IMG/VR virus record: IMGVR_UViG_3300044648_000427
Reading direction: 5' to 3' (one strand)
DNA: 64,000 bases
DNA from: a virus
Position numbers and translations under genes: made by a program. Below are positions 5,241-57,491 of this stretch, one piece after another. The notes under the pieces are model-generated. The model saw only the letters and a program-made list of their open reading frames with translations, searched no databases and was not told the DNA's origin. How positions within the stretch are numbered: position 1 is the stretch's first letter; each line of letters begins with the position of its first letter.

Positions 5241-5585
5241 TTAAATATTGATATATTTAACTTGTTGAATTGTGGTATAAATTTCTAGTTGTTTGAATCT
5301 TTCTTTAAGGTTATTTACTAATGTGCTTAAAGTCAATTCGTCTAAGTTATCAACAATTATATTTATTTGTATATTATGATCTTTGTAAATTTTACCGTTA
5401 TTTTTCCAAGCACCTTTAACGGTTGAACCTATAGAATAACCACCAAATAAGTCTAAAATTTCATTAAAGGTCTGATCAAATATTCTTTTTTGTATCTTTT
5501 GACCATCGTTAAAAGTTTTTGGTAAAAGTATCGTTAAAAGCTGTTTATTGCTTAAAAGCTGTTTTAATTCTGTTGCCATGTCCAA
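5241..5585 (-). CDS. conserved hypothetical protein (possible ferredoxin/PII-like fold)
   Basis: ILLP..FNDG...FGGYS...VKGAW..NGKIYKD...FKQLEIY pattern. Confidence 0.5.
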   Translation of the reverse strand: MDMATELKQLLSNKQLLTILLPKTFNDGQKIQKRIFDQTFNEILDLFGGYSIGSTVKGAWKNNGKIYKDHNIQINIIVDNLDELTLSTLVNNLKERFKQLEIYTTIQQVKYINI

Positions 5586-8717: not shown

Positions 8718-9007
8718 GTTAAGAGTAGATTATTCAATCGTGTATATATATGTTTAAAAGCAAAAGCTTAAATACCAGAAAAGAGTATTTGCATTAGTAA
8801 TTGAGGTCTGATATATAAGTGAGTTGGTTGGGTATGTATGTAGGTATAAGGGTAAAATGAAAAACATTAGAGCTTTAACGAATAGCGTTAACGCCTCGCC
8901 AAGATGGCTCGGCTTTTCGTTGTGCGGGGGGAAGTTATCCGTTGATGCGTGGGCTGGGATTGATGGATATTCCTATATATAAATCTTTTCCCACAGGAAA
9001 AGGTTCT

Positions 9008-9210
9008 GCGGAATTGCGGTAGCAACGGCTATAGCGGAACAACGGCACAAGGGTTTAAATACTCTATAATGTATTATATATATCTATTGTTTAACATGTT
9101 ATTAAATAAATCATGTGCGTTATTTATCGCTGTTTGCTCGCCGCAATTCGTCCGCAACTGCCGTTATTCCGCAATTTCCGCTTTTCGCTATTCGTCAATC
9201 CGCCCGCCGC
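9008..9210. repeat. inverted phased (G/A)CGG arrays flanking an AT-rich core, locus 2
   Basis: Plus strand: 9008, 9016, 9025, 9034, 9042; minus strand (CCGY): 9141, 9152, 9161, 9169, 9178, 9200; AT-rich core about 9051-9112. Confidence 0.75.
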
Positions 9211-9415
9211 AAATCATCGGATTAGCGATATAAGGAATATATATATGTTGCGGCCACACGCCCACAGAGCCAATGTGTATATAATGATCAAAGGGTAATA
9301 TAAATGTTTAATAGATATTGAATGTTCCACGGTTCACTATAAAGAGGCTTTCACTCCTATGCCCTCTCGGGTCTGCACCCCAATAAGTATTATATATATT
9401 AAAGGTAATATAAAC

Positions 9416-19576: not shown

Positions 19577-19665
19577 ACCAAAAAATTTGGGTAGGCGAAA
19601 AATCGTTTTCCCCTTATAATCCCCTTTCAAAGAAGTCTACCACTGTGGGGGATGTGTTCGTTTTA

Positions 19666-19731
19666 GCGGCGAAGCCGCAAGCGGAAATTGCGGTAGCTGC
19701 GGTAGCAGCGGAAATTACCGTTGAGTAGCGG
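19666..19731 (+). repeat. phased GCGG array, locus 4
   Basis: GCGG at 19666, 19681, 19690, 19699, 19708, 19728. Confidence 0.75.
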
Positions 19732-25660: not shown

Positions 25661-27193
25661 CTACTCCAAGCTATTAATTTTCCTTTCCGTTCTAATCTCT
25701 GATTTAAGTCTTTCTAATTGGTATTCATTCATATCGGCAAATTTGATAAATTGTGAAAGAAATTTACTTCTATTTTTTACTTCTTTGAACATTTTTTGAC
25801 AAATAATTCTATACTCTGGATTACCCTGTGGTATGGTTCTTAATTCAATAATATGAGCAAGTTCACGGAAATTACAGAATATTTGATAACGATAATTGAA
25901 GGCAAAATTCAAGCAATATGGTGCTAATTGTGGTAATCTATTATAAATATGCTTATATATTTTGATGGAATTTTCCATCAGATCACAAAATTCAACATCT
26001 AAACCCAGTTTTTTAATTTCTGGAGGTATGTAAAATCCAATATGAGGATTAAATTCAGTCCTATGGAAGGTCAATAATCGATGTCTGTGTAAATCTCTAT
26101 AAACTGCATAACTTGAAACTATTTCGAACCTCCACATAGAGTTTTCAAATACTCTAGGTAAATTATGTCGTCTGTTCTGTCTGAGATTGGACATTATTTG
26201 AGATAAGAGTTTACGTCTTTGGTTAATACTAAGACTTAATAACCATGTTCGGATGGAATCAAATGAAAGACCCTTATCATTTACTTCATAAAAGATGTTG
26301 GTAAGAATATTAATTTCAGAAATAAGTTGGACATCACTTTCTAAACATTTTACATAATTTTCGTATATATCAGGCTGATTAATTTCTTTAATTTCTCCGA
26401 AATCTAAATGTCTTGTTAAATGAGATTTTCTTCTAGAATTATAATTTATCAGATAATTTTGATATGATTGACCATGAGGGGAATCTATACGTGAAAGGAG
26501 TGGCCCGATTGTAGAACTTAATTCCTTTTGTATTTTACTACCCAATCTTTTTACTTCAGGAATGTTCGAAGCTTTCATCTTCAAAATTAAATGCTCAAAA
26601 TAACGTCCGGTTCCGTTTATTGCAACATTAGTCAATATACTTGATGGTAAAATTCCTCTGACAATATCAAGAGTTTTAGCTTTAATGGTTGAATTATAAA
26701 CAGCTTTAGTATTTTTTACTCCTTCATAGTTTAAACTTTCTTCTGGAAACTGTTCACGTAAGTAGGAATCAACTTTTTCTGACATTTCATTATAAGTTTT
26801 TATAGAATTATTACAATGTTCAATATAAATATCAGTTAAATCCCCTAATTGTTCAGGAACGTAAAACTTATCAAAAGTTACGTATCTTGAAGATCGTTCG
26901 AGATATGAAGCACCTGTTCTAGAATCTTCTATGAATTGAGCTGCAATATTAGATATATCTTCAATTGCTATTTGAGTTGAACATAATTCCGCAATTGAAT
27001 CATCGCCAAAGTTTGCGAATACTTTTTTGTAAAACTCTTCTCCTCTATTTGGATTATTTTCGAATTCATCATGATAAATTTGTCTCATACTTTTAGTTGA
27101 ACGGGAGTATCTAGACATCAAAGCTCCACGGTCAACTTCATTTGGTATTTTTATTACAAAAACATTAGAATTTTCATTACTGAATGGTTCCAT
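25661..27193 (-). CDS. thyX: FAD-dependent thymidylate synthase (long two-domain type)
   Basis: SRYSR, FGDDSIAEL, YLERSSRY, RDLHRHR, NFRELAHIIELR. Confidence 0.9.
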   Translation of the reverse strand: MEPFSNENSNVFVIKIPNEVDRGALMSRYSRSTKSMRQIYHDEFENNPNRGEEFYKKVFANFGDDSIAELCSTQIAIEDISNIAAQFIEDSRTGASYLERSSRYVTFDKFYVPEQLGDLTDIYIEHCNNSIKTYNEMSEKVDSYLREQFPEESLNYEGVKNTKAVYNSTIKAKTLDIVRGILPSSILTNVAINGTGRYFEHLILKMKASNIPEVKRLGSKIQKELSSTIGPLLSRIDSPHGQSYQNYLINYNSRRKSHLTRHLDFGEIKEINQPDIYENYVKCLESDVQLISEINILTNIFYEVNDKGLSFDSIRTWLLSLSINQRRKLLSQIMSNLRQNRRHNLPRVFENSMWRFEIVSSYAVYRDLHRHRLLTFHRTEFNPHIGFYIPPEIKKLGLDVEFCDLMENSIKIYKHIYNRLPQLAPYCLNFAFNYRYQIFCNFRELAHIIELRTIPQGNPEYRIICQKMFKEVKNRSKFLSQFIKFADMNEYQLERLKSEIRTERKINSLE

Positions 27194-47286: not shown

Positions 47287-47321
47287 AAAACCTTAAATAT
47301 ATCTAAACTCATTTACTTTTA

Positions 47322-48122
47322 TTGAACATACCTGACGCTGACGAAGATTTCATTCACTGTGAATTCCTTAACCTAAAAAAACAATATTCAAATATTAATA
47401 TTGGATTTGCCGTTATAACAGGCTCGGATTCTTATGGATTCAAGTCTGAAAATAGTGATCATGATATCCGTGGAGTTTTTTACTATAACACAAAAGACCA
47501 ACTCAAGTTATTTAATAATAAACAATCCAATTTTAATTATACATTAAAAGAAAAATATGATTTCGTACTTACTGAGGTCGATAACTTTATTAAAAACATT
47601 GTTAGAATGAATTGTACAACTCTAGAACAGTTATTTTCGCCCTTCATACTATACTGTAATCCACCTTTTGAAAAACTTAAAAACGTAGTAAGTAACAATC
47701 TTGCATCCAAAGGTATATACGAATCATATCATGGAATGGCTACATTTAATTATAAGCATTATATTGAATCAGAGTCAAAAGCTACCATAAAGAAGTGGCT
47801 ATATGTAATTCGTGCATATTTATCTGGAATTTATGCATTAAAATACGGGAAAGTTGAACAGAATATTCTATCATTACTTGCTGCTAAACTAGTAAATTAT
47901 GAACAATCCCAATTAATAGATGATCTCGTTGTTATGAAACTACATAATAAGGAAGATTCCCCAGTTACCGATTACAAGTTATTGAAAGAAGAATTATTAC
48001 AACTCAGAGAAGAATTAAATCATAGACTTGAAACCCATTATAAAGAATGTAAGTTACCTAAGGAATCAACAGAAATATTTAAAGATTATTTGGATTATTG
48101 GATAGTGGATTTGAGAGAATGA
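47322..48122 (+). CDS. Pol-beta superfamily nucleotidyltransferase (RlaP/YcgL-like)
   Basis: GSDSYGF.SENSDHDIRGVF, LEQLFSP, KKWLYVIRAYL. Confidence 0.75.
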   Translation: MNIPDADEDFIHCEFLNLKKQYSNINIGFAVITGSDSYGFKSENSDHDIRGVFYYNTKDQLKLFNNKQSNFNYTLKEKYDFVLTEVDNFIKNIVRMNCTTLEQLFSPFILYCNPPFEKLKNVVSNNLASKGIYESYHGMATFNYKHYIESESKATIKKWLYVIRAYLSGIYALKYGKVEQNILSLLAAKLVNYEQSQLIDDLVVMKLHNKEDSPVTDYKLLKEELLQLREELNHRLETHYKECKLPKESTEIFKDYLDYWIVDLRE

Positions 48123-55179: not shown

Positions 55180-55728
55180 GTGAAAACCAAATTATCAGTA
55201 GAATTCGTTTATTGTAAATGTGAATGTGGTTTAACTAGACCTAAATATGATAAATGGTATATAGAAAGAAAATTCATTAAAGGACATGAATGTATAGGGA
55301 GGAAAGCTTCGAATGAAACTAAGAATAAAATGAGAATCTCTCAAACTGGTAAAAAAATGTCACCTGAATCCATAGAAAAAACGAGAAGAGCGAATATTGG
55401 TAGAAAAGTAACTGAGGAAACTAAACAAAATATTAGTAAAGCTCGTAAAGGTAAAATGACTGGTGAAAACCACTTTGCGTGGAAAGGTGGAAAAATAATT
55501 CGTCGTGGTTATATTTATTTACTAAAACCGGGATATCCTAATGCAGAAATGGGGAGATATATAAGAGAACATAGATATGTAATGGAACAATACTTAGGAA
55601 GATTATTAAAATCATATGAAGATGTTCATCATATAAATGGAAATAAATTAGATAACAGATTAGAAAATCTAGAAGTTTTAACTAAATCTGAGCATACAAA
55701 AAAACATTTTGAAATACTGAAACTTTAA
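55180..55728 (+). CDS. NUMOD3-HNH homing endonuclease
   Basis: NUMOD3 repeats; EHRYVME...DVHHINGNKLDNRLENL. Confidence 0.85.
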   Translation: MKTKLSVEFVYCKCECGLTRPKYDKWYIERKFIKGHECIGRKASNETKNKMRISQTGKKMSPESIEKTRRANIGRKVTEETKQNISKARKGKMTGENHFAWKGGKIIRRGYIYLLKPGYPNAEMGRYIREHRYVMEQYLGRLLKSYEDVHHINGNKLDNRLENLEVLTKSEHTKKHFEILKL

Positions 55729-56057: not shown

Positions 56058-56286
56058 AAGAAAGATTAATTATCGAAACTTATAAATATTGCTATTGACA
56101 AAATAAATTATGTCTTTACCATGCGTTAAACGATGTATAGAATGTGATAAATTATTCGATGTTTATGAAGATGCATTTAAAGATTATAATAATTCACAGT
56201 TAAGAACACATTGTAGGAAGTGTAGAAATTGAATTTCTTTATTAACACTAAAAAAGTTTAAATATTTATAAATATATTCATTTTTC

Positions 56287-56685
56287 ATGTCTGAACATAA
56301 ATTTAAATATTTTTGTCAGTGTGGATGTAAAGCCTATGCCATACCAAAAACTATACCTCAAGAATATATCTATAACGAAATTAGAAAAGATGCAAGAGAT
56401 GATAAAGATTCAAAACAAATTGAATCTTATAATCCTAACGATGAATTTTATCATCATAAAGAACCTTGGGAATTAAGAGTCTGTTCTGGAACACAACCAA
56501 GAGTAAATGATTTAGCCTTTCCAAAGGATCATTATGTATTTGATGTAGATAAACCTTGTGATTTTAATGCAGTAATTATTCGTAATAGATTTGATAGTAC
56601 AATCATTTATGCTTTTATTTTACAAGGAGATTGCGAGTGTACGAACAAGGGATTACCGGTTAAACCAAAAAAGTTAAATACATAA
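56287..56685 (+). CDS. hypothetical protein
   Basis: ORF track; leaderless promoter. Confidence 0.55.
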   Translation: MSEHKFKYFCQCGCKAYAIPKTIPQEYIYNEIRKDARDDKDSKQIESYNPNDEFYHHKEPWELRVCSGTQPRVNDLAFPKDHYVFDVDKPCDFNAVIIRNRFDSTIIYAFILQGDCECTNKGLPVKPKKLNT

Positions 56686-56701
56686 AAAACTATAATAATC
56701 T

Positions 56702-56768
56702 AGTGTAGAGAAAGCTAAATTACGTAATAGGCTTAGGCTTGTATAGGGTTTGAACCCCTACTACACAA
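56702..56768 (+). ncRNA. tRNA-like element 1 (acceptor + T arm, non-canonical lower half)
   Basis: GTGTAG/CTACAC stem; TAGGG-TTTGAAC-CCCTA arm. Confidence 0.4.
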
Positions 56769-56771
56769 GTT

Positions 56772-56837
56772 GGATACCGCCACTTAGCAAAGCTCTATGT
56801 AAGGCTATTGGGATGCGAATTCCCTAGGTGTCCACCA
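56772..56837 (+). ncRNA. tRNA-like element 2 (66 nt, encoded CCA)
   Basis: GGATACC/GGTGTCC 7-bp stem + A-CCA; GGGA-TGCGAAT-TCCC arm; too short for a full cloverleaf. Confidence 0.5.
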
Positions 56838-56871
56838 AAAACTTTAAATATTATTGTTTAGTACGTTATTT
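56837..56871 (+). promoter_or_regulatory. archaeal BRE/TATA leaderless promoter (representative of many)
   Basis: AAAAACTTTAAATA about 22 nt before ATG 56872; similar elements at 46102, 53502, 56250, 58723, 62169. Confidence 0.6.
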
Positions 56872-57189
56872 ATGAGTCAACAAGCTCTTACCACAGAAAA
56901 ATACTTAAAAATTTATAATATTGAAATAGATTCTGATAAATTCAAAGATTATAATCTTAAAATGAGTGAAGGAGAAATAATTGATATTGATTATAGAAGT
57001 ATATCTGGTGTTCTAGAAATAGCCGTTTTAACATCTAACAAATTCGATTTAGTTAACTATGATATAAAATTGGTTCAAGATAAAGATTATGTAAATATGG
57101 ATGATGATTATAAATACTATGGAAAATTTAAACCATTTTTACAAGGTTTTAACGTGTTTATATTTATAAAAAGGGGGAATTTACAATGA
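56872..57189 (+). CDS. beta-rich hypothetical protein, paralogue of next gene
   Basis: KIYNI...YYGKF...NVFI; start moved to ATG 56872. Confidence 0.55.
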   Translation: MSQQALTTEKYLKIYNIEIDSDKFKDYNLKMSEGEIIDIDYRSISGVLEIAVLTSNKFDLVNYDIKLVQDKDYVNMDDDYKYYGKFKPFLQGFNVFIFIKRGNLQ

Positions 57190-57491
57190 GTCAAGTTAAA
57201 AAACATGTAGTAAAAACTTATCCAATAAAACAAATTGGAACAACAGAATTTGATGCTACTATTGGAAATCCTGTAGGATTACATGTTGATGATAATAACC
57301 AACCCTATGTAATATTAGAACATACGGTAAGATTTACTAATGCATCAACTTATAAAGTTTTATCAATTGAAAATGGAAAAGAAGCGGAACTTAAAGGCTA
57401 TGTATATGTTGGAAGTTTTAAACCAAAAGGTGTGATGCTAAGACATGTATATATAACTTCCAATGAAGGAGTAATAGATGTTCCACGCTAG
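57186..57491 (+). CDS. beta-rich hypothetical protein
   Basis: VKTYPI...YVGSF...RHVY. Confidence 0.55.
   Translation: MSQVKKHVVKTYPIKQIGTTEFDATIGNPVGLHVDDNNQPYVILEHTVRFTNASTYKVLSIENGKEAELKGYVYVGSFKPKGVMLRHVYITSNEGVIDVPR

Follow-up and report, generated by a model that had tools for sequence, protein, structure and literature searches.

Putative tRNA top-half mimics encoded in tandem behind a predicted promoter of their own in a probably archaeal tailed virus

What use might a virus have for two short RNAs that resemble the acceptor and T-arm half of a tRNA and that come without the half which decodes? The question is raised by two adjacent units at 56702-56837 of a 64-kb stretch of viral DNA (64,000 nucleotides, IMG/VR record IMGVR_UViG_3300044648_000427; hereafter the window). 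A first-pass annotation had placed both units there on the + strand, and a re-reading of the sequence bears out positions and strand alike.

The setting of the units

The window has a GC content of 30.5% and the gene content of a tailed virus. An HK97-type capsid protein is recognised through protein-atlas look-alikes and a portal protein by a Pfam Phage_portal match whose score lies below the curated cut-off, and genes for a family B DNA polymerase, ThyX, thymidylate kinase, Dam methylase, TnpB and an RlaP nucleotidyltransferase accompany them. The ThyX domain is confined to residues 339-474 of a 510-aa ORF (25661-27193, − strand), the first 330 residues of which have no Pfam match. Among the GenBank phages searched there was no close relative of the window, and only HNH fragments matched. 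Promoter boxes with the pattern TT(T/A)AA(T/A)A, in most cases TTAAATAT preceded by an A-run, are found 16 times with a start codon 27-31 nt downstream, and the distances of such boxes from the ORFs behind them cluster tightly at −28 to −30, which indicates that the messages are leaderless. Judged from this promoter architecture the AT-rich virus is probably an archaeal one. Three more consensus boxes on the + strand (at 5241, 8768 and 58685) have no start codon at the usual 28-30 nt and may belong to further non-coding RNAs or to messages with leaders; the box at 8768 precedes a GC-rich island. The GC-richest islands of the window (8885-9220 and 19640-19720, 57-60% GC) are apparently non-coding and contain motifs resembling GCGGAA(A)TTGCGGTAGC, repeated in either orientation, which could be replication-origin or protein-binding repeats.

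The units lie in a gap of about 187 nt (56686-56871) that has a + strand ORF on either side, of 132 aa before it and of 105 aa after it, and the order of elements there, as read from the sequence, would be promoter, unit 1, a 3-nt spacer, unit 2 and the promoter of the next gene. The first promoter is of archaeal type (56667-56681, +), matches the window consensus with an A-run BRE-like element and an TTAAATAC box from 56674, and is overlapped by the last codons of the 132-aa ORF (AAAAAAG-TTAAATAC). No ORF starts 24-59 nt behind this box; the leaderless-gene spacing of 28-30 nt from the box start predicts transcription from 56702-56704, which is the 5' end of unit 1. The box sits in coding sequence and so its conservation in a relative proves nothing. 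Unit 1 (67 nt, 56702-56768, +) is delimited by sequence, fold and motif scan and is followed by a GUU spacer (56769-56771), at the end of which an RNase P site would be expected (56771/56772). Unit 2 (66 nt, 56772-56837, +) is delimited by the same three kinds of evidence and also by its retention in two related contigs. The next promoter and start codon (56838-56874, +) comprise an A-run, an TTAAATAT box at 56844 which matches the consensus, and a leaderless ATG at 56872; they are conserved in the relative with several substitutions, and the last A of the unit 2 ACCA doubles as the first A of this A-run.

Within the gap no ORF is present on either strand, and the small-ORF reading was rejected. 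A scan of 56200-57300 for intrinsic terminators (a GC-rich hairpin followed by a T-run) returned 0 terminator-like sites, and what follows unit 2 is an A-run. The promoter spacers on either side have 12-15% GC, and between them the units stand out as a GC island, with unit 1 at 39% and unit 2 at 50%, a value reached by only 1% of 66-nt segments across the window. From this layout we infer that units 1 and 2 may constitute a promoter-defined small-RNA transcription unit.

Two top-half folds

In unit 2 a 7-bp helix that includes one G-U pair is formed between GGAUACC (56772-78) and GGUGUCC (56827-33), and is followed by A56834 and CCA (56835-37), just as had been annotated for its stem and A-CCA end. 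The G-U pair and the ACCA end, taken with the promoter, speak for a transcript from the + strand. The second "CCACCA" string, considered as a separate signal, is simply the end of the helix plus ACCA. The T-arm-like hairpin (56810-24) pairs GGGA (56810-13) with UCCC (56821-24) around the loop UGCGAAU and stands 2 nt (UA) from the 3' strand of the helix, so that a 4-bp stem and a 2-nt spacer are found where a canonical T-stem has 5 bp and no spacer. The hairpin has an alternative fold as a GNRA-capped helix, and it is this version that the folding program prefers in the short form of the unit carried by the relative. A side arm of 3 bp (GCC 56779-81 with GGC 56803-05) with a 21-nt loop completes the structure.

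Unit 1 has a 6-bp terminal helix (GUGUAG 56703-08 with CUACAC 56761-66), the would-be seventh pair being an A-A mismatch (56702/56767), and A56768 occupies the discriminator position. Its T-arm-like hairpin (56744-60) has a stem of 5 bp (UAGGG 56744-48, CCCUA 56756-60) around the loop UUUGAAC and adjoins the terminal helix without a spacer. This arm is nearly canonical, with G53-C61, U54, U55, R57 and A58 kept and only C56 missing. C56 of real tRNAs contacts the D-loop; neither unit has a D-arm. In the side arm AAGCU (56712-16) can pair with either of two GGCUU copies (56730-34 or 56736-40).

Both units carry the T-loop signature, in which the loop opens with U and has a purine as its fourth base and A as its fifth, and each is a three-way junction, some 10 nt under cloverleaf length, with no 5-bp stem closing a 7-nt anticodon loop. 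The earlier description of them as top halves about 10 nt too short for a cloverleaf and lacking an anticodon arm is upheld by ARAGORN and Rfam, neither of which finds a tRNA. ARAGORN reports 0 tRNA genes in six settings that cover its standard, relaxed, intron and mitochondrial modes; only when the score threshold is lowered to 80% does its mitochondrial mode make 14 calls in a 500-nt test stretch, and these are presumed to be noise. At the gathering score Rfam gives no tRNA or other family, and with E up to 10 the tRNA model finds nothing on the + strand and the matches otherwise are at chance level.

Compared with a canonical tRNA, neither unit forms a cloverleaf with D-arm and anticodon stem. 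The features of the canonical top half (acceptor helix, U54..R57-A58 loop, discriminator and CCA) are present in unit 2 with 7 bp, A and CCA, and in unit 1 with 6 bp plus a mismatch and a 5-bp T-stem. D-armless or armless mitochondrial tRNAs are not matched either, the side arm of unit 2 having 3 bp and a loop of 21 nt in the window and of 7 nt in the relative, with differing sequences. Nor do the units fall among the YrlA or Y RNAs, since Rfam has no such match at E up to 10 and the RNA ends at the acceptor helix. A C/D-box or H/ACA guide RNA was considered and rejected, there being no CUGA or UGAUGA in 56702-56837. As regards an attP core, which would copy the 3' half of a host tRNA exactly, the loop UGCGAAU is without the near-universal U55, each unit brings its own 5' strand, and no integrase occurs among the neighbouring ORFs scanned.

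How readily such folds arise by chance was gauged with a strict motif of a 4-bp GC-rich stem, a 7-nt U/R/A loop, a spacer of 0-2 nt and a 6-bp terminal helix, which on both strands of the window matches at units 1 and 2 only. Dinucleotide shuffles give 0.08 matches per window, and in none of the 150 did two occur, for criteria that were chosen after the units had been seen; a looser structural scan without the T-loop signature gives about one match per shuffled window. Two adjacent co-oriented matches within one 187-nt gap are very unlikely to be a product of chance. Folding energy on its own is unremarkable (z of −1.3 for unit 1 and −1.6 for unit 2). The units are not detectably paralogous, their local alignment being no better than that of shuffles (p 0.36), and a covariance model of unit 2 run across 76 kb (the window and the loci of its relatives) found neither unit 1 nor any second copy.

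Retention and replacement in a relative

Relatives of the locus appear to be scarce. Among 5.8 billion proteins the flanking protein finds only its own 90% cluster, viral contigs searched by protein and by DNA pattern gave nothing related (the sole match, L001, is chance), and a scan of GTDB genomes gave four matches, all of them chance and inside bacterial genes. Two contigs, L002 and L003, came out of a metagenome scan; they are identical at the locus, so that they amount to a single relative, and in both the flanking protein is 91% identical. The first-pass annotation had named intact tRNAs in relatives, of which the units would be decayed copies, as the finding that would speak against its reading; no tRNA is present at the spot in L002 or L003, and that case does not arise here.

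Unit 2 is retained in the relative as a 52-nt form in which a 14-nt deletion takes the side-arm loop from 21 to 7 nt. From the T-arm through ACCA all 28 bases are identical, and the single change in the helix (U to C) turns the G-U pair into G-C. Five substitutions separate the two versions; the four outside the helix are confined to side-arm loop and junction (two of them junction bases), a placement which for five changes is not significant by a binomial estimate (~0.14). The 52-nt form folds with a z of −2.85, its best fold taking up 63% of the ensemble. In unit 2, 14 of 14 pairs are kept, and unit 1 is not conserved. The annotation had named covariation in relatives as a check; no pair of unit 2 is changed on both sides, and covariation support is nil with two sequence versions to compare.

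In place of unit 1 the relative carries an unrelated 108-nt segment of 49% GC (L003:3154-3261, identical in L002). Homology stops a few bases past the predicted start and resumes exactly at 56772, the first base of the unit 2 helix, so that the piece which has been swapped corresponds exactly to the first RNA. The segment, which adjoins unit 2 on its 5' side, shows a hairpin at its 5' end and a long terminal helix (GAAGCC..ACUACUC with GAGUAGU.GGUUUC), after which comes ACC, and it probably represents a further small RNA. Rfam assigns it to no family, with a C/D-box model matching at chance level only (E 2.6-7).

The neighbourhood is a mosaic, with an HNH gene and the 105-aa ORF missing from L003 and an extra 550 nt present elsewhere in L003. 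The HNH homing endonuclease gene (55180-55728, +) lies behind an M4 protease gene, and its absence from L003 marks it as a recent mobile insertion; its DNA matches HNH genes of Staphylococcus and Streptococcus phages only. The 105-aa ORF (56872-57189, +) and the next gene (57186) both begin with ATGAGTCAA, a shared start which suggests that recombination at the start-codon region brought the 105-aa gene in. The 7-mer AAGCTCT at 56790-56796, which belongs to the extra loop of unit 2, recurs at 56882-56888, just inside the 105-aa ORF; both stretches are missing from L003, and the repetition is probably chance.

Unit 2 can be regarded with considerable confidence as a real non-decoding mimic of a tRNA top half. 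For unit 1 the same identification is plausible and somewhat favoured, its T-arm being better than that of unit 2 and its conservation absent; at 39% GC and not conserved, unit 1 on its own would make a weak case.

Possible roles and known counterparts

The reading that we prefer, and to which the features of the sequence lend about an even chance, is a two-RNA operon of non-decoding tRNA top-half mimics, in which unit 2 would be a constant t-element-like module cut by host tRNA-end enzymes. Transcription would run from about 56702-04 through both three-way-junction RNAs, each of which would present the acceptor/T-arm half only, together with one short variable side arm, and would do no decoding. 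Host tRNA enzymes would then cut the transcript before G56772, the 5' end of unit 2, to leave two small RNAs with defined ends; this place of cutting is the most likely one because the top half is chiefly what RNase P, tRNase Z and the CCA-adding enzyme recognise in a tRNA. Acting as a t-element, unit 2 would supply the 3' end of an exchangeable upstream RNA (unit 1 here and the 108-nt RNA in the relative), and would itself become a free RNA of 52-66 nt that ends like a tRNA in ACCA. RNase P takes its measure from the T-arm/acceptor stack rather than from sequence (PMC4919913), and in Haloferax cutting of archaeal t-elements by RNase P and tRNase Z releases the flanking RNAs (PMC4326828). An encoded ACCA is not required of a mere processing signal and so counts against a reading of unit 2 as a t-element only, and the conserved ACCA and the dedicated promoter would also be compatible with a true mimic or decoy.

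That role is the substance of a possible if tentative alternative, in which unit 2, and perhaps unit 1, would be a functional mimic of the tRNA end, an abundant decoy or competitive substrate offering acceptor helix, A73 and CCA. Candidate targets are host toxins, the CCA-adding enzyme, a synthetase and the viral RlaP. The presence of the encoded ACCA and of a perfect 7-bp helix in both versions speaks for such a role, as does a strong promoter of its own, and so does the possession by the virus of an RNA-repair nucleotidyltransferase. This RlaP-family protein (47322-48122, +; 266 aa; PF10127, E 2.5e-29), with a predicted leaderless promoter of its own at 47293, is the "viral nucleotidyltransferase" of which the annotation had proposed the units to be possible substrates; no RNA ligase was seen among the ORFs scanned. 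The task proposed for RlaP is to put back a nucleotide missing from tRNAs that ribotoxins such as the anticodon nuclease RloC have cut (PMC12776372), and tRNA damage is on this account plausibly relevant to the virus. The link to the units is a weak one, however, as the gene lies 9 kb off and RlaP is tied to cuts in the anticodon loop, a loop that the units do not have. Against a decoy further stand the single copy within the 76 kb searched, and the final A of ACCA that also opens the A-run of the next promoter. A fuller version, in which unit 2 is a promoter-driven 52-66-nt acceptor-end mimic used in infection, where it would soak up host attackers or sensors of tRNA 3' ends, or be charged, or be extended by RlaP, with the upstream slot holding exchangeable small-RNA cargo, seems unlikely.

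It is quite unlikely that the units are decaying remnants of viral tRNA genes, or a neutral leader, with no present function. The T-arm of unit 1 is nearly canonical and yet dispensable in the relative, and the identity of about 90% between the two versions of unit 2 is no higher than that of the flanking genes, both of which would suit decay. However the + strand goes unmatched by the tRNA model with E up to 10, no tRNA stands at this locus in the relative, unit 2 has been shortened there with every pair kept and with a better fold, and 50% GC in a 30% GC genome is not expected to last without selection.

Very unlikely is an element that acts at the DNA level or is linked to the promoter, such as a conserved joint for the recombination of gene cassettes, or a likeness to tRNA that is coincidental. 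Promoter/stem-loop cassettes do recombine in T4-type phages, and here the two viruses differ in the HNH gene, the 105-aa ORF, the 550-nt insert and what occupies the place of unit 1, with unit 2 and the next promoter fixed in both. The G-U pair and the ACCA end are nevertheless features of RNA, unit 2 is single-copy in the window and the loci, so that it is not a dispersed recombination repeat, and coincidence is made improbable by the strict-motif shuffles. Scarcely credible are odd decoding tRNAs without a D-arm, suggested by the 7-nt side-arm loop of L003 with its U at the second position, which is readable as an anticodon loop, and opposed by a side arm of only 3 bp whose 21-nt loop in the window has another sequence and hence no conserved anticodon, or a gene on the minus strand, where the Rfam tRNA model has a weak match to unit 2 (E 4.3) that at 12.7 bits lies far under the 29-bit threshold and where the G-U pair becomes an A-C mismatch and T-arm, CCA and consensus promoter are all missing.

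To return to the two-RNA operon with its constant module, if host tRNA enzymes do cut the units the virus would have a simple route to precisely ended small RNAs without terminators, and RNA "cargo" would be exchanged upstream of a processing module that stays constant. A decoy role of unit 2, with its mature tRNA end, would point instead to an archaeal conflict over tRNA 3' ends that has gone unrecognised, and should the acceptor-end mimic reading be true, the RNA would represent a new class of counter-defence RNA in archaeal viruses. Either way the locus offers a compact natural substrate for the requirements of archaeal RNase P, tRNase Z and CCA-adding enzyme.

Processing elements that resemble tRNA are known from archaea, organelles, mammals and one herpesvirus, and to our knowledge the small RNAs of archaeal viruses are almost unexplored. 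In our searches of the literature no description of tRNA-like minihelix genes from archaeal viruses turned up, nor any of promoter-driven tandem top-half mimics with an encoded CCA in an archaeal virus. In mascRNA/MALAT1 and MEN-beta a tRNA-like module lies 3' of a non-coding RNA and RNase P makes the 3' end of the RNA upstream; the small RNAs so freed carry CCA and remain uncharged. Unlike the units here, they are eukaryotic and nuclear, have a full cloverleaf outline and receive CCA after transcription, and Rfam gives no match of the units to the mascRNA/MALAT1 family. Murine gammaherpesvirus 68 makes viral tRNA look-alikes that are not aminoacylated, and these are co-transcribed with small RNAs from which host tRNase Z separates them. 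They differ from the units in belonging to an animal virus, in their internal Pol III promoters, in their cloverleaf form and in their place at the 5' end of the transcription unit. YrlA, among the bacterial and phage Y RNAs, shares with the units a tRNA mimicry that includes the T-arm and has genes linked to RNA-repair genes, of which RlaP would be the one here; unlike the units it ends on the side of the anticodon stem, keeps a D-arm and has a Ro-binding stem, and near the locus neither a Ro nor an RtcB gene was seen.

D-armless and armless mitochondrial tRNAs come close in size and plan to the units, with 52-67 nt and a three-helix layout, and differ from them in a 5-bp anticodon stem, a 7-nt loop and a conserved anticodon; enzymes are able to adapt to such tRNAs (PMC7730189). 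Closest to the preferred reading are the t-elements, non-decoding tRNA-like folds that stand between other RNAs, as unit 2 also does, and that are known in archaea. Upstream of the 5S rRNA of Haloferax volcanii their cutting by RNase P and tRNase Z sets the ends of their neighbours (PMC4326828), and the same principle of cutting operates at the ends of plant mitochondrial mRNAs (PMC1920247). The units, the cleavage of which is a prediction, differ from t-elements in being viral and in tandem, in having their own promoter with a predicted start at the first helix, in having another small RNA as neighbour where t-elements have an mRNA or rRNA, and in that the conserved one of the two encodes its own ACCA.
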